DNA from: Verrucomicrobiia bacterium
GTDB lineage: Bacteria > Verrucomicrobiota > Verrucomicrobiia > Limisphaerales > UBA1319
NCBI GenBank assembly: GCA_963664225.1
Contig: OY760937.1
Span: forward strand, 1,728,001 to 1,792,000
Direction of reading: 5' to 3'
DNA length: 64,000 nucleotides
This document shows, piece by piece, positions 1,504 through 34,895 of the stretch (positions are counted from its first letter, which is position 1; each line of letters starts with the position of its first letter). Position numbers and translations under genes: made by a program. The notes beneath the pieces are model-generated. The model did no database searches, was not told the origin of the DNA, and saw nothing but the letters and a program-made list of their open reading frames with translations.

Positions 1504-3585
1504 ATGTCGATTTCTTCAAGATGGGGCATTTCCAACCCGGTACTCTGTTGCGCCGCGTTGTGCCTGGTGTTGTGGACGGGATGCACGCCGCCGGGCCCCA
1601 AGGCCCTGCTGACGGGCGAGCGCCTCATTCACGAGGGCAAATACGAGGAGGCCATTGCCAAATTAAAGGTGGCCACCGAGTTGCTGCCCACCAACGCCCA
1701 GGCTTGGAACCATCTTGGTCTGGCCTATCATGGGGCCGGACAGGTGGACAACGCCGTGCATGCCTATCAAACCGCTCTTTCCCTGAATCGCAACCTGGCC
1801 GCCACGCGTTTCAATCTGGGCTGCCTCTTTCTGGAACAGAACAATCCAACCGCAGCCGTCTCCGAACTCTCCTCCTATACGGTTTTTAACCCGGTCTCCG
1901 CCGAGGGCTGGGGCAAACTCGGCCTGGCCCAACTCCAATTGGGACAGTTGAACCCCGCCGAGCAATCGTTCAAACAGGCCTTAAAATTGGAGAGCCGTTT
2001 CCCATCCGCACTCAACGGCCTGGGTCTGATTCAGTTGCGCCGCAACCGCACGACCGATGCGATGCAATATTTCGGCATGGCCCTGCGCCAGCAGACCAAC
2101 TACGGCCCGGCCATCCTCAATGAAGCCATTGTTTATCAGCAGTATCTGAAGAATCGTCCCGTGGCGTTGCAGAAATACCGGGAGTATCTCCTGGTCAACC
2201 CGGGCGCGCCGGACGCCCAGGCCGTGCGGGACATGGTCCATGTCCTTGAATTGGAGCTGGGACCCGCCTATGCACCGGTGGTGACAAATCCCCCGCCCCT
2301 CTTGGCCACGGTGGTGACGCAAACAACCGTGCTCGCCAGCGCCCCATCCAATACCGTTCATCCTGCGCTGACGAACATCAAGGCATCGGTCCTTGTCCCC
2401 GTGGTGACCAACCTCAAAGCAACCATTGCAGCGCCCGCAGTAGTGACGCCGCCCGCGCAGAAGACGCTCGTGGAATCCGAACCGGTGCTTAAAACGAACG
2501 CTCCTCAAACCGTTGTCGCCCGGCCCGAACAACCCAAAATCAAGCCTTCGCCTGTTGTCGTGCCTGTGGTTGCCAGCAAGCCTGTGGAAGCTCCTGCAAA
2601 AGTGGCGGAAGCCCCAATCGTTGCCGAGAAAGTGCTGAACACGGTGCCTGTGGCCACTCCGCCCCCTGCGCCCGTCCTGACCACCCCAGTGGTTGAACCC
2701 GTGACAATTCCCGTGATCACCGAAACACCCGGCGCCACACAAACCATAACCTATGCCTCCGCACCCCTGGCGGAGCCGCAAACCATTAATACCACGGTCC
2801 CAGTCCAAAATGCCCCGGTCCCAGCCCAAACCAACGAATTCCCTTCCGCCCAAAAACCGCCAAAAAAATCGCTCATCCAAAAAATCAACCCGGTCAACTG
2901 GTTGAGTTCCAGCGCGAAAACCCCGAAGACCCCGAAAACCGGGAAGATCGTGACTCCGCTCACCACGGCCAATCGCGTCACATCGTCCACCCCGGCGGAA
3001 ACCCTGGTTATCCCTGGCACTCCTAATTCATCCCAGACCGCGAGTGCGGTGCCGCCTCAGACCACTTCCCGGATCGCGCGGTATCCGTTCGTCTCCCCGC
3101 CCCTGCCCCAGGCGGGCGACCGCCCGGCTGCGGAACGCGCACTGCGAGAGGGAAGCCAGGCTCACACTCTGGGGCATTGGCCGGATACGCTTGCGGCGTA
3201 TCGCAAAGCGGCGCAAGCGGATCCCTCCTATTTTGCCGCGCGCTACAACCTGGCCCTGGCGCTCCTTCACGAGCAGGCTCTCTCGCAGGCGCTGCTGGAA
3301 TTTGAGACCGCGCTGGTCATCGATCCATCATCCTTTAACGCCCGTTACAATTTCGCCCTGGCGCTCCAGGAGGCCAATTATCCCACCGATGCCGCCAATG
3401 AATTCAACAAGCTGGTCGCTCTTGCCCCTGCGGACAACCGGCTGCATCTGGCCCTGGGCAACCTGTATGCCCGGCAACTGTTCCAGCCCCAGATGGCCCG
3501 CAAGGAGTATCTGCGGCTGCTGGAACTCGAGCCTGGCCATCCCCAGGCGCTCGCGATCCGCCAGTGGCTTGCAGAAAATCCTTAA
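1504..3585 (+). CDS. TPR-repeat protein, probable lipoprotein, with long Pro/Val/Thr-rich linker
   Basis: LWTGC lipobox-like motif; TPR motifs (AWNHLGLAY, ARYNLALAL) in N- and C-terminal blocks. Confidence 0.85.
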   Translation: MSISSRWGISNPVLCCAALCLVLWTGCTPPGPKALLTGERLIHEGKYEEAIAKLKVATELLPTNAQAWNHLGLAYHGAGQVDNAVHAYQTALSLNRNLAATRFNLGCLFLEQNNPTAAVSELSSYTVFNPVSAEGWGKLGLAQLQLGQLNPAEQSFKQALKLESRFPSALNGLGLIQLRRNRTTDAMQYFGMALRQQTNYGPAILNEAIVYQQYLKNRPVALQKYREYLLVNPGAPDAQAVRDMVHVLELELGPAYAPVVTNPPPLLATVVTQTTVLASAPSNTVHPALTNIKASVLVPVVTNLKATIAAPAVVTPPAQKTLVESEPVLKTNAPQTVVARPEQPKIKPSPVVVPVVASKPVEAPAKVAEAPIVAEKVLNTVPVATPPPAPVLTTPVVEPVTIPVITETPGATQTITYASAPLAEPQTINTTVPVQNAPVPAQTNEFPSAQKPPKKSLIQKINPVNWLSSSAKTPKTPKTGKIVTPLTTANRVTSSTPAETLVIPGTPNSSQTASAVPPQTTSRIARYPFVSPPLPQAGDRPAAERALREGSQAHTLGHWPDTLAAYRKAAQADPSYFAARYNLALALLHEQALSQALLEFETALVIDPSSFNARYNFALALQEANYPTDAANEFNKLVALAPADNRLHLALGNLYARQLFQPQMARKEYLRLLELEPGHPQALAIRQWLAENP

Positions 3586-3618
3586 ACCCGGCCACGACTT
3601 CTGATAGAGTCTCCAGCC

Positions 3619-4317
3619 ATGCACGGAATTGTTTTTGCCCCACACCTGCTGGCAGCAGCCAGTTTGGACTCCAAAGGTCTGGACCTCTCCAGCATTGCGG
3701 TGGGCTGGTTCGATGGTTTGGTCGTCCTGATGCTCGTTGCGGGCTTGCTGCGGGGGCGTCGCCGGGGCATGTCGGCGGAGTTGCTGGACCTTATTCTGTG
3801 GATCCTGATTGTGGTGGTGGGCGGATTGGGACACTCCGCTTTGGGCAAGGTGGTCTCGAACATCACAGGCACAGGTCTGATGTTCTCTTATATTGTCTCC
3901 TATCTGGGAATCGCCATATTCCTGGGCTTCATTTTCACGATGCTCAAGCACGGCGTGGGTGAAAAACTCATCGGCAGCGACGTGTTCGGGAACCTCGAGT
4001 ATTACCTGGGCATGTGTTCCGGCATGATCCGTTTTTTCTGCATGGTGTTCATGCTCATGGCGGTTCTTAACGCCCGGTTGTACACCAGCGACGAATTGAA
4101 GGCCCAGATCAAATACCAGGAAAAAGAACTCGGCAGCGTCTTTTTCCCCACCGTGGGCATGATGCAAAAGAGTGTCTTTCAGGATTCGTTCGTCGGGAAG
4201 TTCACCAAGGACAACCTCTCCATGCTGCTGGTGACTCCCATGCAGCCGGAAGCGCCCAAGGAAGGCATTGGCCACCGTCGTGAAAAAGAGGTCAACGACG
4301 CCCTGGGCATCAAGTAA
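3619..4317 (+). CDS. CvpA family membrane protein
   Basis: FD.LV....GLLRGRRRG..EL pattern and about four hydrophobic helices. Confidence 0.7.
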   Translation: MHGIVFAPHLLAAASLDSKGLDLSSIAVGWFDGLVVLMLVAGLLRGRRRGMSAELLDLILWILIVVVGGLGHSALGKVVSNITGTGLMFSYIVSYLGIAIFLGFIFTMLKHGVGEKLIGSDVFGNLEYYLGMCSGMIRFFCMVFMLMAVLNARLYTSDELKAQIKYQEKELGSVFFPTVGMMQKSVFQDSFVGKFTKDNLSMLLVTPMQPEAPKEGIGHRREKEVNDALGIK

Positions 4318-4354
4318 CCGGCGCGGATTTCCTGGCGTCACGTTTGCCATCCAC

Positions 4355-6175
4355 ATGGCGGGACTTTTTTCCGAATCCAATCTCGATCAGGTTCGAGCCG
4401 CAAGCGACATTGTCGATGTCATTGGCGCGCATATTCAGCTCAAGCGCCTCGGCGGCAGCTTCGTGGCCTTGTGCCCCTTTCACAAGGAAAAGACCCCCAG
4501 CTTTCATGTCAATCCGTCGCGCCAGATTTTTCATTGTTTTGGATGCCAGAAGGGCGGCGATGTTTTCACCTTTGTCCAGGAATACGAAAATGTGGACTTC
4601 GGCGAGGCGGTCCGACGCCTGGCGGAACGGGCCGGAATCGTTCTGGAGACGGACCAGACTCCCGGACAATCCCGCGCGCGCGAAATCAAGGAAACCTTGC
4701 GGGACATTCACGAGCAAATTGCGAAGCATTGGTCCGCGGTCCTCGCCTCGGATCCGAAGGCGCAGATTGCCCGCGACTACATTGCCAGACGCCAGCTCAG
4801 TGACGAAGCCGTAAAGCTCTTTCGCATCGGCTTTGCGCCCGACGCCTGGGAGGACACCGTGCAATGGGCCACGGCTAAAAAATACGACCTGTCGATCGTG
4901 GAACAGGCGGGGTTGATTCTAAAACGGGACAACGCCCAGGGCTACTACGACCGTTTTCGCGGACGCCTCATTTTCCCGATCTGCGACGAGCAAGGCCGGG
5001 TCTGCGCGTTCAGCGGACGCATCCTGGCGGAGGACGTGAAAACCGCCAAATACGTCAACTCCCCTGAAACGCCGATCTTTTCCAAACGCAAAACCTTCTT
5101 CGGACTGGATAAATCGAAACGCGCCATTCTCGACGCCCAATTCGCTCTGGTGTGCGAGGGCCAGATCGACCTGATCTCCTGTTTCATGGCGGGCGCCCGG
5201 AACATCGTCGCGCCGCTGGGCACGGCCTTCACCTCGGAACACGCGCGCATTCTCAAGCGCTTTGTCAACGAAGTGGTTCTCTGCTTTGACTCCGACAAGG
5301 CCGGCCAAACCGCTGCCGTCCGCGTTCTGGACGACCTCCTCTCCAGCGGTCTGGCGATTCGCGTGGCCGTGGTGCCCGCGCCCCATGATCCGGACAGCTT
5401 CATCAAGGCCAACGGCGGCCCGGCATTTCTGGATCTCATAGCGAAGGCACGGGGCTTTTTCGATTTCTACCTCGATTACCTGTGCCGGGGAAACGATCCG
5501 GCCACGGACCGGGGGCGTTCGGCCATCGTCAAGGCAATGGGCGAAGCGCTCTTGAAAACGGGTAGCCCGGTCCTCCTGGATGCCCACGCGCAGGAGACCG
5601 CCCTGCGGCTCGGTGTGGGAGCGGGCGCCATTCGCGCCGAATTTTCAAAATTGGGAACCCATTCACGGCCCGCACCCATCGAAGAGGACCCGCTGGAGGA
5701 GACCGACGCTCCGGAAGTGGTGCGGCCATCGACCAAGGAATTCTGGTTTCTCAAATGCCTGTTTGCCGACGAAGTGGACACCGCCTGGGTGGCCGCCCAT
5801 CTGGACCCGCAATGGATTGAGCACGCGGATGTGCGGCAAATTGTAACCCACTTTCTGGCGGCCCATCGGGAGGCGCGATGGAACGGTGCGGCGTCGATTC
5901 TGGGCGGGTTGGAAAACGAGACCGCGCGGCATTTGCTCACCGAGGCCCTGACCGATCGCCGGCCAATCCCCAACGCGCGGCTGCAATTGGAGGACATGGT
6001 GCTGTGGCTGCGCAACCAGCCGATGGAACGTCAGCTTGCGCGATTGACGCAGCTCTTGTCCAAGCCCGAACTGAGCGACAGCCAGCGCTTGAATTTCCTC
6101 GAGCAGCTCACCGCCTTGCGCCAGCAAAAACAGACTCCCCTCCAGCCATTGCCCGGCTCGGATTACACGGGTTAA
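4355..6175 (+). CDS. dnaG: DNA primase
   Basis: CHC2 zinc finger CPFH...CFGC, DRFRGRLIFPI, KYVNSPET, TOPRIM EGQID and FDSD; start placed at ATG 4355. Confidence 0.97.
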   Translation: MAGLFSESNLDQVRAASDIVDVIGAHIQLKRLGGSFVALCPFHKEKTPSFHVNPSRQIFHCFGCQKGGDVFTFVQEYENVDFGEAVRRLAERAGIVLETDQTPGQSRAREIKETLRDIHEQIAKHWSAVLASDPKAQIARDYIARRQLSDEAVKLFRIGFAPDAWEDTVQWATAKKYDLSIVEQAGLILKRDNAQGYYDRFRGRLIFPICDEQGRVCAFSGRILAEDVKTAKYVNSPETPIFSKRKTFFGLDKSKRAILDAQFALVCEGQIDLISCFMAGARNIVAPLGTAFTSEHARILKRFVNEVVLCFDSDKAGQTAAVRVLDDLLSSGLAIRVAVVPAPHDPDSFIKANGGPAFLDLIAKARGFFDFYLDYLCRGNDPATDRGRSAIVKAMGEALLKTGSPVLLDAHAQETALRLGVGAGAIRAEFSKLGTHSRPAPIEEDPLEETDAPEVVRPSTKEFWFLKCLFADEVDTAWVAAHLDPQWIEHADVRQIVTHFLAAHREARWNGAASILGGLENETARHLLTEALTDRRPIPNARLQLEDMVLWLRNQPMERQLARLTQLLSKPELSDSQRLNFLEQLTALRQQKQTPLQPLPGSDYTG

Positions 6176-6250
6176 CGGAGTCAGGATAACCAATAAGGCA
6201 CGCCCTCAACCTGTACTTCTCCACCATGGGAAGGACGAGCGTTGGACGGT

Positions 6251-8489
6251 TTATCCCGAAGGGATTACATCATTCAGGCCGGGGTTGCGAGGAACGAGCT
6301 ACCCCGGGTTGCGCACGCCCACGCACCACCAACTCTGTAGGAGTTGGATCAATCCCATACATGCCGTTCGTCGGATTCAATTTCGGATCGTTTTAAAAGG
6401 ATTGCGCGGACGGGACGATTGCGGGTGAGGTTGATCGAACGTGGCTGGATGATCCGCATCCGGAATCGTGGCACGTCCCGTTCCAGTCTGGCGGACATGG
6501 TGGCTTAATTTCCATACAACCACTGCGGCACCAAATTTCCATCTTATTATCCCGAAGGGATTAAATCATTCAGACCGGGGTTGCGAGGAACGAGCTACCC
6601 CGGGTTACACATGCCCACGCACCACCAACTCTGTAGGAGTTGGATCAGTCCCACACATGGCGTTCGTCGCATTCAAATTCATATCGTTTTAAAAGGATTG
6701 CGCGGACGGGACGATTGCGGGTGAGGTTGATCGAACGTGGCTGGATGATCCGCATCCGGAATCGTGGCACGTCCCGTTCCAGTCTGGCGGATATGGTGGC
6801 TTAATTTCCATACAACCACTGCGGCACCAAATTTCCATCTTATTATCCCGAAGGGATTAAATCATTCAGACCGGGGTTGCGAGGAACGAGCTACCCCGGG
6901 TTACACATGCCCACGCACCACCAACTCTGTAGGAGTTGGATCAATCCCATACATGGCGTTCGTCGCATTCAATTTCGTATCGTTTTAAAAGGATTGCGCG
7001 GACGGGACGATTGCGGGTGAGGTTGATCGAACGTGGCTGGATGATCCGCATCCGGAATCGTGGCACGTCCCGTTCCAGTCTGGCGGATATGGTGGCTTAA
7101 TTTCCATACAACCACTGCGGCACCAAATTTCCATCTTATTATCCCGAAGGGATTAAATCATTCAGACCGGGGTTGCGAGGAACGAGCTACCCCGGGTTGC
7201 GCATACCCACGCGCCACCAACTCTGTAGGAGTTGGATCAATCCCATACATGGCGTTCGTCGCATTCAATTTCGTATCGTTTTAAAAGGATTGCGCGGACG
7301 GGACGATTGCGGGTGAGGTTGATCGAACGTGGCTGGATGATCCGCATCCGGAATCGTGGCACGTCCCGTTCCGGTCTGGCGGATATGGTGGCGGTATAAT
7401 CTCCATTCAACCGCTTCGGCGCCGGATTCCCATTCCATTATCCCGAAGGGATTAAATCATTCAGACCGGGGTTGCGAGGAACGAGCTACCCCGGGTTGCA
7501 CATGCCCACGCGCCACCAACTCTGTAGGAGTTGGATCAATCCCATACATGGCGTTCGTCGCATTCAATTTCGTATCGTTTTAAAAGGATTGCGCGGACGG
7601 GACGATTGCGGGTGAGGTTGATCGAACGTGGCTGGATGATCCGCATCCGGAATCGTGGCACGTCCCGTTCCAGTCTGGCGGATATGGTGGCGGTATAATC
7701 TCCAATCAACCACGGCGGCACTGGATTTCCATCTCAATATCCCGTAGGGATTAAATCATTCAGCCCGGGGTTGCGAGGAACGAGCTACCCCGGGTTGCGC
7801 ATACCCCCCCACACCACCAACTCTGTAGGAGTTGGATCAGTCCCACTCATGTAGTTCTTCGCATTCAATTTCGTATCGTTTTAAAAGGATTGCGCGGACG
7901 GGACGATTGCGGGTGAGGTTGATCGAACGTGGCTGGATGATCCGCATCCGGAATCGTGGCACGTCCCGTTCCAGTCTGGCGGATATGGTGGCTTAATTTC
8001 CATACAACCACTGCGGCACCAAATTTCCATCTTATTATCCCGAAGGGATTAAATCATTCAGACCGGGGTTGCGAGGAACGAGCTACCCCGGGTTGCGCAT
8101 CCCCCCCCCATCACCAACTCTGTAGGAGTTGGATCAGTCCCACACATGGCGTTCGTCGCATTCAATTTCGTATCGTTTTAAAAGGATTGCGCGGACGGGA
8201 CGATTGCGGATTGCGGGTGAGGTTTATCGAACGTGGCTGGATGATCCGCATCCGGAATCGTGGCACGTCCCGTTCCAGTCTGGCGGATATGGTGGCCGTT
8301 TAATCTCCAATCAACCACTGCGGCACGGGATTTGGATCTCATTATCCCGAAGGGATTAAATCATTCAGACCGGGGTTGCGAGGAACGAGCTACCCCGGGT
8401 TGCACATGCCCACGCACCACCAACTCTGTAGGAGTTGGATCAGTCCCACTCATGTCGTTCTTCGCATTCAATTTCGTATCGTTTTAAAA
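6251..8489. repeat. Tandem array of ~296-307 bp units (7 full + 1 partial): REP-like hairpins plus 3' end of a Y1 transposase gene
   Basis: Unit starts at 6251, 6547, 6843, 7139, 7438, 7737, 8035, 8342; hairpins ATCCC-GAA-GGGAT, CCGGGGT...ACCCCGG, CCAACTC-TGTAG-GAGTTGG. Confidence 0.97.
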
Positions 8490-8526
8490 ATTCACGGTAT
8501 TCTGATTTATGGGCAATCTTCCTCAA
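8440..8526 (-). pseudogene. C-terminal remnant of IS200/RAYT-type (Y1 HUH) transposase; shorter versions in every array unit
   Basis: Translates to RKIAHKSEYREFLKRYEIECEERHEWD*, resembling the F.EEYR.FL..YEI.FDERY.WD C-terminus of this family. Confidence 0.75.
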
Positions 8527-8580
8527 TGTCTCCCAGCCCGCACGCTCCCGCACCGGCCAGGCAGCGGGGTGGACAAAAGC

Positions 8581-8694
8581 TCCGATTGTTGACCTGCAGT
8601 GAAAAAGGGTTTAAATCCCATACATGCGACGAATTAAGAATGGATTCCGGCCGGTCCAATTCACGAACCGCTGGTCGCATTGTCAAAGTTGGGC
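8581..8694 (+). promoter_or_regulatory. attI-like cassette leader with candidate promoter
   Basis: TTGACC (8589)-N16-TTAAAT; inverted repeat ATGCGAC (8624)/GTCGCAT (8674); GTTGGGC core at 8688-8694 just before the first cassette ORF; homologs at 26610-26812 and 28493-28606. Confidence 0.55.
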
Positions 8695-8705
8695 TTCTGA
8701 TCGGT

Positions 8706-9002
8706 ATGAAAGCGCGCTCCATGTTCCTGCTGTCCCTAATTCTGATGTTCGGGGCACTGCTTATGGTGCTTCGGGGACGGTCTCAACTTAACGAGTCTTT
8801 TCAGGCTTGGCATAGTGGCGAGCATGAGGTTTTTCGGCAGTTTGCCCATCGAGGTGGATGGTTTATTTACCCTGCTTGGGCGCTCGCTGTCGGCGGCGTG
8901 GCATGCCTGTTCGCCTCGTACCGCAGACACGAGCCCGCGTGGCGATGGACGGTGGTGGCCCTGCTTGTGCTCTTCCTCCTTTTCGGCCTCGCGCCCGTAT
9001 GA
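8706..9002 (+). CDS. Cassette-borne small membrane protein (98 aa)
   Basis: Three hydrophobic segments; lies between attI-like core and attC; frame conserved in the duplicate. Confidence 0.7.
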   Translation: MKARSMFLLSLILMFGALLMVLRGRSQLNESFQAWHSGEHEVFRQFAHRGGWFIYPAWALAVGGVACLFASYRRHEPAWRWTVVALLVLFLLFGLAPV

Positions 9003-9009
9003 AACCGAA

Positions 9010-9135
9010 GTTCAACCAGTTCACCACACTGAACTGCCGCCAAGCGTTGCAGTTTCGATGCGCCGGGTTCTTCGGGCGTTGCATTTGCTGGCAGCTCCCG
9101 TTTACGGCGCCCGTCGGTGAGCCAGAGCGTTAACC
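9010..9135 (+). other. attC site
   Basis: R'' GTTCAAC ... ttcacc/ggtgag L boxes ... R' GTTAACC, directly after a stop codon. Confidence 0.7.
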
Positions 9136-9152
9136 GCTATACATCACGCACT

Positions 9153-9440
9153 ATGAAATTCTTTACCACCCCCGATGACAAATTTGTGCATCTTGCAGAC
9201 GATGACAAGCAGCGGGCTGCGGCTTTGGACCTTCTGGAGAGTTCTCGCTCGGCCTATTATTTTGGCGGGCTCCTGGTCATCGCGGTCGCGGCGTGCTTGG
9301 AATTGAGCGGGCACGGTATGGGAGGTTTCGCCATTTTTGGCGTATTGTGTACTTGTCTTGCCTTCAAGTATGAGTCAGACATACGGACACTTAGGATGGT
9401 TGACAATATGCGGAAGAGATATGAAACCAGAGTTAGTTAA
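9153..9440 (+). CDS. Cassette-borne small membrane protein (95 aa)
   Basis: ORF bounded by attC sites; two hydrophobic segments; conserved in the duplicate. Confidence 0.7.
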   Translation: MKFFTTPDDKFVHLADDDKQRAAALDLLESSRSAYYFGGLLVIAVAACLELSGHGMGGFAIFGVLCTCLAFKYESDIRTLRMVDNMRKRYETRVS

Positions 9441-9513
9441 CAAAACGCTCCAGGCAATCGCCGTCAAGCGCTTCGGTTGGCATGTCGGCTGTGCCTGATC
9501 TTGCTCGTTAGGC
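9435..9513 (+). other. attC site
   Basis: R'' AGTTAAC overlapping the stop codon, caggca/tgcctg arms, R' GTTAGGC. Confidence 0.8.
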
Positions 9514-9522
9514 CTCTTTTAT

Positions 9523-10038
9523 ATGTCGCGCGCGAAGGTCAGATGGATTTGGGTTTGCAGCGCGGTCGCCGTCTTGATATTGGCGGCTGTGGCGTTGGTT
9601 TGCTGGCACGGCGCAGCCGAGCCTCTCGGGAACTTTCCGATTTCGCTCCATGGTACAACCAACGATCCGATACGTGGATTGGTGGCCTCCTTCAGCGTGA
9701 CCAACGAGAGCCGGATGAGCATTTACTACTGTATTTGTCCGGTTCAAGTGAAGTCGGACGGTGCATGGCCAGACTTGCGGATTCCGCGCAGCGGCGGCAG
9801 TGAGTTGGCATCGGGCGGGGCTGACGTGTTTTCTGTCGTGGCGCCGGCAGCCGCGCAAGAGTGGAGAGTTCCGGTGGTGTGGGGATACAGACCCACAGGG
9901 TATCGGTCCGTCACGGGACGGGTGAAATACAATCTCCGCTTGAATTGGGACCGGCTGCGACATGGACGGTTCCCAACGCTGGACAACCACGCACAGTTCA
10001 CGCTGCATGCCAGCTATTCCCCGACGTTCAGCAAATGA
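9523..10038 (+). CDS. Cassette-borne hypothetical protein with N-terminal TM/signal segment (171 aa)
   Basis: ATG about 10 bp after the attC R' box; conserved in the duplicate; own attC not found. Confidence 0.7.
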   Translation: MSRAKVRWIWVCSAVAVLILAAVALVCWHGAAEPLGNFPISLHGTTNDPIRGLVASFSVTNESRMSIYYCICPVQVKSDGAWPDLRIPRSGGSELASGGADVFSVVAPAAAQEWRVPVVWGYRPTGYRSVTGRVKYNLRLNWDRLRHGRFPTLDNHAQFTLHASYSPTFSK

Positions 10039-10186
10039 GAAACGGCTTTCATGGTTTCTGAGCTGTCGGAGTAAAGGGATTCGCCGGGCGCAGGACAAAA
10101 TTCAGGAAGCTGGTAAAAGCCTAAACCATACGAACCCAGCCAAGACGCCAATCGGCGTTGTGGGGCATATAATCCGGTGCGGTGGC

Positions 10187-10638: not shown

Positions 10639-11580
10639 ATGAGCCAGAACACTATGACCACTATCTACGCTGGTTTGGATATTGCCAAGCTGAGTCTTGA
10701 TCTCCAACTGGCCGGTCGTTCCCACCATCTGCCCAATACCGCCGCCGGTCATCGCCAGCTCGTCAAACTCCTGGCGCAGCATCCCGGCGCTCACGTCATC
10801 TGTGAAGCCACCGGCGGCTACGAGCGTGAGGTGGCTGACGCCCTCCATCATGCCAGCATTCCTGTCAGCATCATCAATCCCGCCCGCGTCCGGCATTTCG
10901 CCCGCGCCCAGGGACAACGGGCCAAAACCGACCGTATAGATGCCGCCGTCCTCTCCGCCTATGGGCAGGCCTTCGCCCCCAAACCCACGCCCGCGCGTTC
11001 CGAGGTGGAGGAGCAGTTGACCGAACTGGTTCGCCGCCGCACTCAGATCCTTGATCTGCTTATTAGCCAGCGCCATCAGATCGAACGCCTCACGCTGCCC
11101 AAGTTGCGCCGCCAGGCCCAGAGCCTGCTGCGTCGATTGGAACGGGATCTGGAGCATATCGAGACCCAACTCAAAGCGCTGCGCCAGAAAACCACAGAAT
11201 TGGATGAGCGCGCAAAGAAACTCGAGGCTATTACTGGGGTGGGCGCGATTACCGCCTTGGGGGTTTTGGCTGAGCTGCCCGAGTTGGGCACGCTCAATCG
11301 GGGGCAGGCCGCCGCCTTGGCCGGACTGGCTCCACATCCTCGAGAAAGCGGCCAGTGGCAAGGCCGCCGCTCCATCGGTGGCGGAAGAGCCGCCGTTAGA
11401 CGTGCCCTCTACATGGCCGCCCTGGTGGCTGCGCGCTGCAATCGCCAACTCAAGGAGTTCTAGGAACGACTCCGATTGGCGGGCAAGCCCGCCAAAGTCG
11501 CGCTCACCGCCGTCATGCGCAAACTCATTGTCCTGATGAACCAAATCCTTAAAAACCCAGATTTTGCACTCTCAAATTAA
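10639..11580 (+). pseudogene. IS110 transposase with internal nonsense codon
   Basis: GLDIAK, CEATGGYE, AKTDRIDA, RESG motifs; TAG at 11461-11463 in EF*ERL, then frame continues GKPAKVALTAVMRKL to TAA 11580. Confidence 0.88.
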
Positions 11581-26609: not shown

Positions 26610-26812
26610 TACCGTCTTTGATTATGCGCCGAGCAACTCGTATCTTGGACCGGGCAGAGTCCATTCTCAATTCGTCGCATATACGGAGTTTAAACCCTTT
26701 TCCAATGTTGGTCAATGTCAGAGGTTTGCCCACGCCGCTCGCTGGCCGACGTGGGAGTGAGCGGGCTGGGAGACATTGAGGCAGATTGTCCGTAAATCAG
26801 AATACCGCGAGT
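26610..26812 (-). promoter_or_regulatory. Diverged attI-like leader, homolog of 8490-8694
   Basis: Shared blocks caatgtctcccagcccgc, ttgacc...aaaagggtttaaa, atgcgacgaatt.agaatgga, cgcat..tcaaag; GTT core degenerate. Confidence 0.55.
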
Positions 26813-27113
26813 TTATAAAAGGATACGAAATTGAATGGGACGAACGCCATGTATGGGACTGATCCAACTCCTACAGAGTTGGGGGGGGGTATGCGCAACC
26901 CGGGGTAGCTCGTTCCTCGCAACCCCGGTCTGAATGATTTAATCCCTTCGGGATAATGGAATGGGAATCCGGAGCCGAAACGATTGAATGGAGATTATAC
27001 CGCCACCATATCCGCCAGACCGGAACTGGACACGCCACGATTCCGGATGCGTATCACCCATGCAACCCTGAGTGGAATGCAATCATCCAGCGCCGGGTCG
27101 CGAGGCACGAGCT
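26778..27113. repeat. tnpA 3' remnant plus REP unit (inverted relative to the 6251 array) and a partial opposing REP
   Basis: Plus strand encodes KSEYREFIKGYEIEWDERHVWD*, followed by the same three hairpins and linker. Confidence 0.85.
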
Positions 27114-27148
27114 TTATTCCGACAGCTCAGAAAACACGAAAGCAGTTT

Positions 27149-27664
27149 TTATTTGCTGACTGTCGGGGAATAGCTGGCATGCAGCGTGAACTGTGCGTGG
27201 TTGTCCAGCGTTGGGAACCGTCCATGTCGCAGCCGGTCCCAATTCAAGCGGAGATTGTATTTCACCCGTCCCGTGACGGACCGATACCCTGTGGGTCTGT
27301 ATCCCCACACCACCGGAACTCTCCACTCTTGCGCGGCTGCCGGTGCCACGACAGAAAACACGTCAGCCCCGCCCGATGCCAACTCACTGCCGCCGCTGCG
27401 CGGAATCCGCAAGTCTGGCCATGCGCCGTCCGACTTCGCTTGAACCGGACAAATACAGTAGTAAATGCTCATCCGGCTCTCGTTGGTCACGCTGAAGGAG
27501 GCCACCAATCCACGTATCGGATCGTTGGTTGTACCATGGAGCGAAATCGGAAAGTTCCCGAGAGGCTCGGCTGCGCCGTGCCAGCAAACCAACGCCACAG
27601 CCGCCAACATCAAGACGGCGACCGCGCTCCAAACCCAAATCCATCTGACCTTCGCGCGCGACAT
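27149..27664 (-). CDS. Cassette protein, duplicate of 9523-10038
   Basis: Near-identical 171 aa translation. Confidence 0.7.
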   Translation of the reverse strand: MSRAKVRWIWVWSAVAVLMLAAVALVCWHGAAEPLGNFPISLHGTTNDPIRGLVASFSVTNESRMSIYYCICPVQAKSDGAWPDLRIPRSGGSELASGGADVFSVVAPAAAQEWRVPVVWGYRPTGYRSVTGRVKYNLRLNWDRLRHGRFPTLDNHAQFTLHASYSPTVSK

Positions 27665-27673
27665 ATAAAAGCG

Positions 27674-27752
27674 GGCTATCGTTCAGGCTCAGGCACAGCC
27701 GACATGCCAACCGAAGCGCTTGACGGCTACTGCCTGGAGCGTTTTGTTAACC
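27674..27752 (-). other. attC site with degenerate R'
   Basis: R'' GGTTAAC, ctccaggca/tgcctgag arms, R' GATAGCC. Confidence 0.75.
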
Positions 27753-28034
27753 AACTCTGGTTTCATATCTCTTCCGCATATTGTCAACCATCCTAAGTGT
27801 CCGTATGTCTGACTCATACTTGAAGGCAAGACAAGTACACAATACGCCAAAAATGGCGAAACCTCCCATACCGTGCCCGCTCAATTCCAAGCACGCCGCG
27901 ACCGCGATGACCAGGAGCCCGCCAAAATAATAGGCCGAGCGAGAACTCTCCAGAAGGTCCAAAGCCGCAGCCCGCTGCTTGTCATCGTCTGCAAGATGCA
28001 CAAACTTGTCATCGGGGGTGGTAAAGAATTTCAT
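27747..28034 (-). CDS. Cassette protein, duplicate of 9153-9440
   Basis: 95 aa; differs only at the last residue. Confidence 0.7.
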   Translation of the reverse strand: MKFFTTPDDKFVHLADDDKQRAAALDLLESSRSAYYFGGLLVIAVAACLELSGHGMGGFAIFGVLCTCLAFKYESDIRTLRMVDNMRKRYETRVG

Positions 28035-28051
28035 AGTGCGTGATGTATAGC

Positions 28052-28177
28052 GGTTAACGTTCTGACTCACCGACTGGCGCCGTAAACGGGAGCTGCCAGC
28101 GAATGCAACGCCCGAAGAACCCGGCGCATCGAAACTGCAACGCTTGGCGGCAGTTCAGTGTGGTGAACTGGTTGAAC
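28052..28177 (-). other. attC site
   Basis: Copy of 9010-9135. Confidence 0.7.
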
Positions 28178-28184
28178 TTCGGTT

Positions 28185-28481
28185 TCATACGGGTGCGAGG
28201 CCGAAAAGGAGGAAGAGCACAAGCAGGGCCACCACCGTCCATCGCCACGCGGGCTCGTGTCTGCGGTACGAGGCGAACAGGCATGCCACGGCGCTGGCAG
28301 CGAGCGCCCAAGCAGGGTAAATAAACCATCCACCTCGATGGGCAAACTGCCGAAAAACCTCATGGTCGCCACTATGCCAAGCCTGAAAAGACTCGTTAAG
28401 TTGAGACCGTCCCCGAAGCACCATAAGCAGTGCCCCGAACATCAGAATTAGGGACAGCAGGAACATGGAGCGCGCTTTCAT
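28185..28481 (-). CDS. Cassette protein, duplicate of 8706-9002
   Basis: Near-identical 98 aa translation. Confidence 0.7.
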   Translation of the reverse strand: MKARSMFLLSLILMFGALLMVLRGRSQLNESFQAWHSGDHEVFRQFAHRGGWFIYPAWALAASAVACLFASYRRHEPAWRWTVVALLVLFLLFGLAPV

Positions 28482-28492
28482 ACCGATCACAA

Positions 28493-28606
28493 GCCCAACT
28501 TTAACAATGCGACCAGCGGTTCGTGAATTGGACCGGCCGGAATCCATTCTTAATTCGTCGCATGTATGGGATTTAAGCCCTTTTCCACTGCAGGTCAACA
28601 ATCGGA
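28493..28606 (-). promoter_or_regulatory. attI-like leader, copy of 8581-8694
   Basis: Near-identical, with GTTGGGC core. Confidence 0.55.
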
Positions 28607-28630
28607 ACAGGTCGCGCACAATGCCGGATG

Positions 28631-28747
28631 CGTCCCATCCGCGCAATCCTGTAGGGTTGCAATCTTTCAGCCCCGGGTCGCGAGGAACGAGCCACCCGGG
28701 GTCATCGTCCACCCTCCATAATTTCCCCAACGCAGTAAACGTTGAAT
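28631..28747. repeat. Diverged REP unit
   Basis: gcaatcctgtagggttgc; ccccgggtcgcgaggaacgagccacccgggg; caacgcagtaaacgttg. Confidence 0.7.
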
Positions 28748-28820
28748 CAAATTCGCATCCGGCATTGCAGCGCGATCTGAATCGGCCAGAGGGCGTGATG
28801 AGTGACTTCGACGCGGCTTC

Positions 28821-29553: not shown

Positions 29554-29705
29554 ACCTAACATTAAGCAGTGTATGCGCCGCACCCTAGGTTGCAAGCGCG
29601 CAGACTTGTCCAGAGCCTCACGAGGGCATGGCGCAGACATTGCTTAACGTTGGTCAACATCAGAGCTTCTGACCACCCCGCTGGCTGGCCGGTTTGGGAG
29701 CGGAG
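29554..29705 (-). promoter_or_regulatory. Third type of attI-like leader
   Basis: Shares ctccc..accggccag.cagcggggtgg.ca.aagctc.gat..ttgacc with 8545-8594; tgcgcc/ggcgca inverted repeat; GTTAGGT core. Confidence 0.45.
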
Positions 29706-29722
29706 AGCAGAGGGCGGGTCGC

Positions 29723-30143
29723 TGATCCAACTCCTACAGAGTTGGTGGTGCGTGGGCATGTGTAACCCGTGGTAGCTCGTTCCTCGCAACCCCGGTCTGA
29801 ATGATTTAATCCCTTCGGGATAATGAGATGGGAATCCGGTGCCGCCGTGGTTGATTGGAGATTATACCGCCACCATATCCGCCAGACTGGAACGGGACGT
29901 GCCACGATTCCGGATGCGGATCATCCAGCCACGTTCGATAAACCTCACCCGCAATCGTCCCGTCCGCGCAATCCTTTTAAAACGATACGAAATTGAATCC
30001 GACGAACGGCATGTATGGGACTGATCCAACTACTACAGAGTTGGTGGTGCGTGGTTATGTGCAACCAGGGGTAGCTCGTTCCTCGCAACCCCGGGCTGAA
30101 TGATTTAATCCCTTCGGGATAATGAGATGGCAATCCGGCGCCG
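29723..30143. repeat. ~1.4 units of the 296-bp repeat, inverted relative to 6251-8489
   Basis: Near-identical to array units. Confidence 0.93.
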
Positions 30144-30372
30144 CAGATGGATGAACAGGATGGGGTGTGGATTGGCAGGGACGGGAATCCGCAGATGGAG
30201 ACCGGGAGGAACGGACTCAACCGCAAAGAGCACAGTGCCGGGAAAAAGGCAATGGACCACTGAGGCACGGAGGGGGACAAAATAAATTTATGCGTTTTAG
30301 TCCTGCACCCCAGGCAAACAGTGCGCCTGGTTTCAAATTGTGTTTTTCACGCTCTCTGGTTAGATTGGAAGG

Positions 30373-33743: not shown

Positions 33744-34706
33744 TCATGGAGCAACACAGAATCTGGGATCTTTTAGGGCATGATTCATCAATACGATGAG
33801 TTTCCGCATCACTGCTGTCAGCGCCACTTTGGGCTTCTTGCCCGCCGCCCGCAGCCTCTTATAAAAGGCCTTGAGGATGGAATTGCAGCGCACCGCTGCC
33901 ACGGAGGCCATGTAGAGGGCGCGGCGCACCCCGGTCCGGCCGCCACCAATGTGACGCTGGCCTTCCCAAGGGCCGCTCTGGCGCACCCACGGGGCCAGCC
34001 CCGCCAGGGCTGCCGCCTGGCCCCGGTTGAGGGTTCCCAGTTCGGGCATCTGCGCCACTACCGTCACGGCCGTCAGCATCCCCACGCCGGGAATTTCCGC
34101 CAGGCGGGTGACTTGTTTTTGCTCGACGGCGTGGCGGGCCAGGGCGGCGGTTAATTCGGCCAGCACTGCGGCCAAACGGCTTTCCAGATGCCGTATCAGC
34201 TTGGCGTGTTCGGTGCGGACGAAGGGTGAGTCGTGGTGTTCGGCCTGATTTTTGGCGATGGTCAGGAGATCTTTGAGTTGTTCGCGCCAGGTCACCAGGG
34301 CGGTGAGCTCAGTGTGGGCTGGCGTCGGGGCGGTGGTGGCAGCGGGCTCCAGGGCCTTGCCGAAGGCGCTCAGGCTGGCAGCATCGATCGGATCGCTCTT
34401 GGCCCGCTGGCCGGTGGCGCGGGCGAAGGCACGGGTCTGGGCCGGGTTGACCACGCTGACGGGTAAACCGGCCGTGTGAAGTGCCGCCACGACGGCACGC
34501 TCATAGCCGCCAGTGGCTTCGAGGATCACGTGGGCACCGGGCACAGCACCCAGACATTGGACCAGTTGTGTGTGCCCCGCCGCATCGTTGGTCACGTCCA
34601 GGAGCCGTCCGGGAAGGTGAAGTTGGAGAGTGGCCTTGGCGACGTCCAGACCGACATGGACAGGGGCGGATTTTTCAGTCATAATATTAAAGTTGTTCGG
34701 ACTCAT
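33744..34706 (-). CDS. IS110 transposase (DEDD RuvC-like + Tnp20); alternative start 34682
   Basis: GLDVAK, LEATGGYE, AKSDPIDA, RQSG catalytic Ser, GKKPKVALTAVMRKL. Confidence 0.93.
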   Translation of the reverse strand: MSPNNFNIMTEKSAPVHVGLDVAKATLQLHLPGRLLDVTNDAAGHTQLVQCLGAVPGAHVILEATGGYERAVVAALHTAGLPVSVVNPAQTRAFARATGQRAKSDPIDAASLSAFGKALEPAATTAPTPAHTELTALVTWREQLKDLLTIAKNQAEHHDSPFVRTEHAKLIRHLESRLAAVLAELTAALARHAVEQKQVTRLAEIPGVGMLTAVTVVAQMPELGTLNRGQAAALAGLAPWVRQSGPWEGQRHIGGGRTGVRRALYMASVAAVRCNSILKAFYKRLRAAGKKPKVALTAVMRKLIVLMNHALKDPRFCVAP

Positions 34707-34895
34707 TCTTGCAAATACGAGCTGGCGTTGTAACACGCCGCTCTGGTAACGGTTCGAGTTTCGGACAAAGGCGAGCGCGATTCATGCTGCCGTACGGTCT
34801 GGCTTTCACCAGACCAAGATTGGAACGAACACGCGTCCGCCGTCCCTTCCCCGCCTGCAGGCGGGGAAGGGACACCACTTCTTTCTTGTTCAACG
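34707..34895 (-). ncRNA. Predicted IS110 bridge RNA (ends approximate)
   Basis: 5' hairpin GTCCCTTCCCCGCCTGCAGGCGGGGAAGGGAC; target guides TTCCAATCT and TACGGCAG; donor guides ACCGTTAC and TGCAAG. Confidence 0.82.

Follow-up and report, generated by a model that had tools for sequence, protein, structure and literature searches.

A 296-bp tandem array beside dnaG in a Verrucomicrobiia bacterium as a likely remnant of a RAYT-like transposase locus

We analyzed a 64,000-nt stretch of the genome of a Verrucomicrobiia bacterium (UBA1319; GCA_963664225.1, contig OY760937.1, positions 1,728,001–1,792,000, forward strand), hereafter the window, in which 7.5 head-to-tail units of 296 bp lie just downstream of dnaG, the gene for DNA primase. 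Each unit carries the last codons of a Y1 transposase gene (tnpA) followed by a three-hairpin module resembling repetitive extragenic palindromes (REPs). Weighing the evidence below, we lean toward the view that the array is an amplified remnant of a local copy of a locus for a Y1 transposase like the REP-associated tyrosine transposases (RAYTs), and that it grew by recombination or replication slippage without the enzyme. The source genome is closed (5.78 Mb), and coordinates are those of the window (genome coordinates minus 1728000) unless the genome is named.

Results

Anatomy of the array

Tandem Repeats Finder reports a repeat at 6251–8489 with a period of 296, 7.5 copies, 94% matches, and 1% indels, beginning 76 nt past the dnaG stop codon. 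On the minus strand, each unit runs from a spacer of ≈150 nt through the last 16 tnpA codons into a module of ≈100 nt with three hairpins. An earlier reading of the window from its letters alone (the sequence-only reading) had described ≈297-bp units in this number and within these limits, composed on the minus strand of a linker, a tail of ≈15 codons, and hairpins; tblastn (for the 16-codon tail) and alignment (for the spacer and module) bear out that description. The features of the array are as follows.

6251–8489, minus strand: tandem array, 7.5 units of 296 bp (Tandem Repeats Finder, BLAST of one unit against the genome, unit alignment)
6991–7140, minus strand: spacer of ≈150 nt in an example unit, with its homologue in the spacer that separates the direct from the inverted module 5′ of the intact transposase gene
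6944–6991, minus strand: example of the tnpA tail, 16 codons (LLKRYEIECDERHVWD, then stop; tblastn with intact TnpA, residues 136–151)
6352–6399, 6648–6695, 6944–6991, 7240–7287, 7539–7586, 7840–7887, and 8137–8184, minus strand: copies of the tnpA tail (tblastn)
8443–8523, minus strand: tnpA tail remnant of 27 codons (RKIAHKSEYREFLKRYEIECEERHEWD), longer than the others, where the array begins in gene orientation (tblastn, 74% to TnpA residues 125–151)
6845–6954, minus strand: example of the three-hairpin REP-like module (nhmmer, single-stranded DNA fold, covariation in relatives)
6253–6362, 6549–6658, 6845–6954, 7141–7250, 7440–7549, 7739–7850, 8037–8147, and 8344–8453, minus strand: the eight array modules (nhmmer, E 1e-34 to 1e-37)

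The minus-strand frame of each unit closes with LKRYEIECDERHVWD and a stop codon, or with a near variant, and the seven tails match residues 136–151 of an intact 151-residue Y1 transposase at 69–88% identity (tblastn). For CCAACTCTGTAGGAGTTGG, the 19-nt stem sequence of the first hairpin, the window has 11 occurrences, compared with zero in 100 shuffles: the array accounts for eight, all on the plus strand, and the remaining three, on the minus strand, lie at 26864, 29727, and 30026. Pairwise, the units are 91.9–98.6% identical, with 54 variable alignment columns. The unit alignment also shows them to be mosaic, with variants of the spacer end and of the module combined differently from unit to unit, which is the pattern that repeated unequal exchange yields. 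One boundary of the array is a module's outer edge (6251) and the other is the end of the common 16-codon tail (8489), the footprint expected of exchange or slippage between direct repeats.

Every unit holds one module, all eight modules lie on the minus strand, and no unit contains the inverted REP pair of a bacterial interspersed mosaic element (BIME) or of a REPIN, the paired-REP hairpin element. A tandem REP/REPIN/BIME cluster is defined by head-to-tail units that combine a REP-type element with DNA flanking it, and the array has this form. Neither Pfam nor NCBIfam has a family matching five short open reading frames (ORFs) of the array or a 208-aa ORF that runs out of it. A longer minus-strand frame (MPRFRMRIIQ...), considered as part of a gene, was ruled out, as its alignment to the intact locus shows it to be a reading of the spacer.

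Assemblies are prone to error in long identical repeats, and none of the public-run contigs listed spans the array. The units, however, are distinguishable at the 54 variable columns, and unit-specific contigs occur at about the depth of the flanks (7673–7791 at depth 32.7, against 25.8–39.3, in run X1; also 7692–7775 in run X3). Stretches common to three units reach depths of 84–155 in X1 and 22.5–43.7 in X3, shared pieces standing at ≈3–5 times the flank depth. These runs come from two studies and were used as assembled contigs only; they possibly include the data behind the genome assembly, and the depths, which favor several distinct units, are possibly not independent of it. An assembly artifact is unlikely, and we would be very surprised if the true copy number were just one or two. 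Apparent contig joints (7538>8587 and 7239>8587) were not used; their sides are 30 nt and compatible with paralogous copies.

The intact transposase gene

A search of the genome with Y1_Tnp gave ten matches, nine of them above the cut-off and none inside the window, consistent with the earlier statement that the window holds no full transposase. The intact gene that matches the array tails is at genome 3202502–3202957 (L008:1483–1938), 1.47 Mb from the array. Its 151-aa product, which ends in EYREFLKRYEIEWDERHVWD, scores 73.3 bits against Pfam Y1_Tnp (cut-off 23; E 2.4e-20) and 55.6 bits, barely above the cut-off of 55, against NCBIfam transpos_IS200 (IS200/IS605 transposase). The HVH (HUH) motif and the catalytic-Tyr motif YITEQ are both visible. 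When the genome was searched with this protein (tblastn), it returned the seven 16-residue array tails, a further one at 29974–30021, and 27-residue tails at 8443–8523 and 26779–26859, so the tail does belong to a Y1/HUH transposase as proposed. No other Y1 gene shares more than 43% identity with the intact protein. The tail is unique to this one gene, and the tails of the other eight recur nowhere in the genome.

BLAST of one unit against the genome found matching sequence on both sides of the intact gene. In gene orientation, the locus reads direct module, spacer of ≈190 nt, inverted module, 30-nt leader, gene, and a direct module lying across the stop codon. The two modules 5′ of the gene pair as a long hairpin (z −5.4), and the inverted one has the same hairpin-2 loop as the array modules. 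The locus thus has several traits of a REPtron: an HUH-type Y1 gene lies between inverted copies of the hairpin repeat that belongs to it, this repeat is dispersed in many gene-less copies, and the cognate gene is single.

The published signature of TnpA-Y1 subclass 1.2 comprises DH[IV]H, WQ, and Y---Q--HH motifs, a length of ≈148 aa, and a conserved tail domain of ≈30 residues, along with low copy number and divergent paralogues (PMC6006769); the same paper gives the subclass as "REP: no" and as occurring chiefly in Cyanobacteria and Bacteroidetes. Our protein has EDHVH, WQ, and YITEQECHH, a length of 151 aa, a conserved tail, and several divergent paralogues, and it fits subclass 1.2 in an assignment made by motifs alone rather than with the authors' profiles. 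PMC6006769 and PMC8266576 describe class 2 TnpA-REP enzymes by a Y---NP signature and by a 5′ GTAG foot on the REP, neither of which the intact gene and its module show, the Tyr motif being YITEQECHH. The Y1 set of the genome comprises six subclass-1.2-like paralogues, two ordinary IS200-type genes, and one class 2 RAYT.

Genome 193877–194359, 2207256–2207732, 2905859–2906407, 3264016–3264501, 3599096–3599563, and 3202484-2957: paralogues with the subclass-1.2 motif (Y---Q--HH), 33–43% to the intact protein

Several of these six divergent paralogues have repeated flanks of their own (up to 37 BLAST hits). A search for TnpB found no PF07282 match in the whole genome. We also considered a TnpB/IscB omega-RNA right end and rejected it given this result, the absence of an Rfam match, and the identity of the tail as TnpA.

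The hairpin module

All three hairpins appear in a single-stranded DNA fold of the unit, although the unit as a whole folds no better than its shuffles (z −0.99). RNAalifold, applied to 55 sequences (53 of 59 qualifying direct modules of relatives, one array module, and the intact locus), predicted the same three, with 10 of 19 pairs retained through changes on both sides. The three hairpins of the sequence-only reading are therefore upheld; the GTAG loop that it assigned to one of them is not, the loop of the first hairpin being CTACA on the gene (minus) strand, with TGTAG as its plus-strand complement. GGTAGC does occur on the gene strand, in the 5′ arm of hairpin 2 and not as a foot.

Searched with a profile of the eight array modules (nhmmer), the genome gave 79 hits, which collapse across strands to 53 loci. 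A 29:24 split of module orientation relative to replication was discarded because its origin/terminus call was invalid: the cumulative GC skew climbs almost monotonically and the block means lack the usual two-arm pattern, so that origin and terminus cannot be placed from skew. The skew is positive at 0–1.3 Mb and 3.6–5.8 Mb and near zero between.

The unit as an internally deleted cassette

Unit positions 1–151 align, with three gaps, to the spacer of the intact locus (L008:1167–1355), and positions 141–296 align to its last 16 codons and downstream module (L008:1882–2034). Judged by this alignment, the unit is the intact cassette minus ≈535 bp, namely the inverted module, the leader, and ≈135 codons. 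It had earlier been called a non-autonomous right-end mini-element; it is indeed non-autonomous, but rather than simply a right end it is the whole cassette with an internal deletion.

6977–7000, minus strand: example of the deletion junction between spacer and tail (CGCGCAATCCT joined to TTTAAAACGATAC), present in all seven full units and at 29965–29988

This junction 24-mer has eight matches in the genome at up to two mismatches, seven in the array and the one at 29965–29988, all in the window, and it has none in a metagenome contig collection. The full unit and the spacer have no match in 40 related genomes, 15 of which match the tail-plus-module part or the last 56 nt only. A junction restricted to one window argues for spread by local tandem and segmental duplication rather than by transposition to distant sites, and we found no copies with constant ends at unlinked sites, such as would mark an IS200/IS605 element or one resembling a miniature inverted-repeat transposable element.

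Four related segments lie farther along the window.

26779–27112, plus strand: second locus, with a 27-codon tail (26779–26859), a module (26849–26954), spacer, and the first part of an inverted module; a duplicated segment interrupts the locus at 27112
27112–28606, minus strand: inverted duplicate of 8581–10076, 1.5 kb with three small genes, 97.5% identical (window self-BLAST)
28604–28760, plus strand: fourth fragment, with a spacer remnant, inverted module, and leader; no gene follows
29722–30154, plus strand: third locus, 1.4 units, with a module without tail, spacer, 16-codon tail, module, and ≈25 nt of spacer

Inverted copies had been noted near 26778–27052 and 29723–30143, which correspond to the second and third loci; the fourth fragment had been overlooked, and within it 28631–28755 is 94% identical to the region directly 5′ of the intact gene. 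The three window loci have the same outside flank beyond the tail, a repeat that we call P. Their far ends differ, the main array having 0 spacer bases past its last module and the copy ending at 30154 having ≈25 nt. The shared flank, the differing far ends, and the confined junction together argue for tandem and segmental duplication in one 24-kb neighborhood and for no transposing element. Of movement of the unit as an element in its own right, which the proposed amplification in trans would imply, these observations show no sign: its junction occurs eight times, always within these 24 kb, and the ends of the three loci are not fixed.

Duplicates at related loci and elsewhere in the genome

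The closest protein relatives of the intact transposase, at 65–77% identity, were examined at 80 loci from public genomes, mostly labeled as metagenome-assembled genomes (MAGs) of Verrucomicrobiota or Planctomycetota. Module hits flanked the gene at all 80, most of them arranged as at the intact locus, which, with the covariation and the flanks of the intact gene itself, supports the view of the hairpins as the REP-like module of this transposase gene. In the usual layout, the inverted module ends ≈25 nt 5′ of the start codon and the direct module starts in the last codons.

Extra tails occur at four of the 80 loci, and L030 and L090 contain module arrays. In L090, three complete orthologous genes stand head to tail (2278–4168; 620 bp, 99%) with their joint within the palindromic hairpin 2, and a 4.4-copy, 44-bp array of hairpin 3 follows the triplet (4159–4353). 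Because hairpin 2 is palindromic, direct homology is available even between inverted modules. In L030, a 375-bp, 2.6-copy array with modules comes right after the gene. In L024, a 99% identical duplicate of 214 nt of tail plus module stands 756 bp upstream, with decayed gene remnants in the interval; in both L070 and L083, another direct copy is found 2–3 kb away. By analogy, we presume that such duplicates represent earlier stages of array formation.

The source genome contains 41 arrays with a period of at least 100 and an identity of at least 85%, including the following.

Genome 619150–622984: 615 bp, 6.2 copies
Genome 2566430–2568486: 204 bp, 7.7 copies
Genome 4443712–4444639: 237 bp, 3.9 copies

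Among the 18 arrays that are open reading frames throughout, 15 are without a module, so tandem duplication is evidently frequent in this genome anyway.

How the array may have arisen

On the reading we favor, a second copy of the cassette would have arisen head to tail at this spot, and a single deletion of ≈535 bp would then have stripped the inverted module and ≈135 codons, joining the upstream spacer to the last 16 codons. The outcome would be a 150-nt spacer with a 146-nt block of tail plus module repeated in direct orientation on either side. Unequal recombination or replication slippage between the two blocks could have produced the 7.5 units, and segmental duplication would later have taken pieces to two sites nearby. 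Growth of this kind would need no transposase, and the array would be a by-product of a REP system, in a genome whose modules are often found in tandem arrays. Both the order of events and the recombination mechanism are inferred from the present arrangement.

Several observations sit less easily with this account, and some of them suit an array built by the transposase. The left breakpoint, between AATCC and TGTAGGGAT in the intact locus, lies at most 1–2 nt from the foot of the terminal hairpin of the inverted module, where a hairpin-directed nuclease might cut. The junction microhomology (CGCGCAATCCT versus CGCGAATTCT) is good for the present-day intact gene and less so when the window's 27-codon remnant is compared, and two T at the junction exceed what a simple crossover predicts. 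Across the genome, 16 of 23 non-coding long-period arrays carry or abut repeats from the flanks of RAYT-like genes (the flanks of all such genes served as queries), compared with ≈3–5 expected, a rough figure that assumes an intergenic share of 10–20%; this excess points to a role of the modules or the enzyme beyond chance homology. Several other module-bearing arrays have edges 95–468 nt from a module, so that direct modules at both ends cannot account for every array. No result here discriminates recombination from enzyme-catalyzed addition of units.

In such a transposase-built array, the predicted Y1 enzyme would nick single-stranded DNA by the module, the 3′ end would prime copying, and a second cut with strand transfer would add a unit; alternatively, an excised unit circle would be copied by rolling circle, the tnpA tail and spacer being flanking DNA swept in. 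We consider this possible, though doubtful. The genome has an intact gene with the same tail, whose inverted module bears the array-type hairpin-2 loop; 28 of the 79 module hits sit in the 41 long-period arrays, which make up 0.68% of the genome; and none of the 41 carries the flank repeats of the two ordinary IS200 copies. Head-to-tail duplicates at the gene in relatives, the 16 arrays with RAYT-flank repeats, and the breakpoint at a hairpin foot fit it as well. Ton-Hoang et al. 2012 (PMC3333891) modeled rolling-circle-like tandem amplification for the BIMEs of Escherichia coli, with units that may take up gene fragments including tnpAREP. The enzyme mechanism offered by the sequence-only reading, with unit circles or rolling-circle concatemers, amounts to this published hypothesis, and it is likewise possible, though doubtful. 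Against it, the unit is limited to one neighborhood and one junction, and the three loci have outer ends at differing points rather than at one cleavage-like position. Replication stalled at hairpins, or the homology that modules supply, would also lead one to expect modules in arrays, and the expectation of 3–5 depends on the assumed intergenic fraction.

A broader version, that Y1 enzymes of subclass 1.2 are active REP enzymes adding head-to-tail copies of module-adjacent DNA, with this array, the 16 arrays, and the triplicated genes as their footprints, strikes us as slightly less probable still.

The setting next to dnaG

The array lies precisely in the interval separating dnaG from a group of genes with a different orientation.

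4268–6175, plus strand: dnaG (DNA primase), immediate upstream neighbor of the array (635-aa ORF; Pfam DNAG_N, Zn_ribbon_DnaG, Toprim, and DnaB_bind)
8541–8694, plus strand: repeat P, ≈150 nt, between the array and the next gene (BLAST, 13 further genome copies)

This position would suit a hairpin block kept for a role in the cell, whether in ending or stabilizing the dnaG transcript, in insulating it from the divergent gene cassette, or in binding a nucleoid protein, and the introductions of PMC8266576 and PMC3333891 list such functions for REPs and BIMEs. We nevertheless think a retained role improbable. Rfam gives no hit in the window at gathering scores, nor any in 6100–8800 when E is allowed to reach 1; a scan of 5900–9000 found no promoter-like site and a sole terminator-like site, at 8846–8861, outside the array. 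The public runs listed as containing the sequence include no RNA data set. The spacer was not found outside the source genome among the 40 related genomes, the unit folds no better than shuffled sequence, and the short ORFs of the array belong to no Pfam or NCBIfam family. In nine relatives, dnaG and its upstream gene are kept, whereas downstream there is no match to a window gene, module, or transposase, and none of the nine has a module within ≈1.5 kb downstream of dnaG.

Repeat P also occurs in the window at 26616–26810, 28477–28606, and 29652–29702, and a P-plus-module composite recurs at 846, 848, 1960, 1962, and 221 kb. At several unlinked loci, P lies between a gene start and a REP-like module. 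It contains …CGCATGTATGGGATTTAAACCCTTTT…, which resembles the end of the transposase tail and the first hairpin, and for this reason P may be an older, decayed tail plus module, now upstream of small genes.

The three ORFs of the 1.5-kb duplication (8581–10076 and 27112–28606) encode 100–170 aa, the first with a hydrophobic N-terminal stretch; the 208-aa ORF overlapping that first one has no Pfam or NCBIfam match. About 2 kb beyond the array, a 274-aa ORF (10639–11463) starts with MSQNTMTTIYAGLDIAKLSLDL…, which we take to resemble an IS110-type transposase, and has weak paralogous matches at 33757–34772. The region 3′ of dnaG suggests a variable neighborhood rich in mobile elements.

Discussion

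How REP-type repeats multiply, and why tandem clusters of them are so frequent, is addressed by models in the cited papers, which report no in vivo proof. The present locus is unusually legible: its unit is long, it carries a dated scar in the form of one deletion junction, and it retains a piece of the gene for the enzyme, so that the history of the array is open to direct reading. Many parallel arrays and an intact cognate gene are available in the same genome as well. If confirmed with the published profiles, the REPtron arrangement would extend to subclass 1.2 and to the Verrucomicrobiota and Planctomycetota; and if subclass 1.2 enzymes do act on REPs, this genome would be a natural in vivo test system for a model so far drawn only for E. 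coli BIMEs.

The locus resembles the REPtron and BIME-2 elements of E. coli (PMC3333891) in having a single cognate Y1/HUH gene between inverted copies of its own hairpin repeat, in the scattering of that repeat over the genome, and in local tandem copies that are well conserved within a locus; the amplification models published for that system, driven by the enzyme, can likewise include gene fragments. It differs from them in its enzyme, which has the IS200-like YITEQECHH rather than the Y---NP of class 2 TnpA-REP, and in its repeat, a 100-nt module of three hairpins rather than a single palindrome of 20–40 nt with a 5′ GTAG foot. Its 296-bp unit, moreover, is not built on an inverted REP pair: it has a single module, always oriented alike, and 190 nt of other DNA.

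From subclass 1.2 as described by Quentin et al. 2018 (PMC6006769), the present family departs in two respects: modules lie on both sides of the gene at all 80 loci, whereas the subclass is listed there as REP-less, and the loci come mostly from MAGs of Verrucomicrobiota and Planctomycetota rather than from Cyanobacteria and Bacteroidetes. With the IS200/IS605 elements IS608 and ISDra2, the locus has in common the enzyme fold family (by Pfam and NCBIfam) and single-strand hairpins adjoining the gene. Unlike those elements, which occur as several near-identical copies, it is represented by one intact copy with this tail; its flanking hairpins are inverted rather than direct, the genome has no TnpB, and gene-less copies of the module are many.

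A parallel in form is offered by the tandem REP/REPIN clusters described for Pseudomonas and other bacteria (PMC3116915, PMC3733652). In P. fluorescens SBW25 (Bertels and Rainey 2011), a REP-type element and its flank are likewise repeated in ordered, head-to-tail fashion, some of the clusters adjoining RAYT genes (PMC3116915). Those clusters are commoner than chance, and the authors infer a second, unknown mechanism that forms them (PMC3116915). The largest REPIN cluster reported there has four REPINs (just over 700 bp), compared with 7.5 units and 2.2 kb here, and in our array the flanking DNA is a recognizable 3′ piece of a transposase gene, in another phylum and with another Y1 subclass. 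The sequence-only reading had held that a long tandem array with the tnpA tail in each unit is not a standard REP layout, which goes too far given the tandem REP/REPIN clusters with flanking DNA described in PMC3116915 and PMC3733652, and given the tandem-amplification models and the gene-fragment-bearing units, tnpAREP included, of PMC3333891. The array is a larger and more legible instance of the known REP/RAYT tandem clusters rather than a new kind of element.

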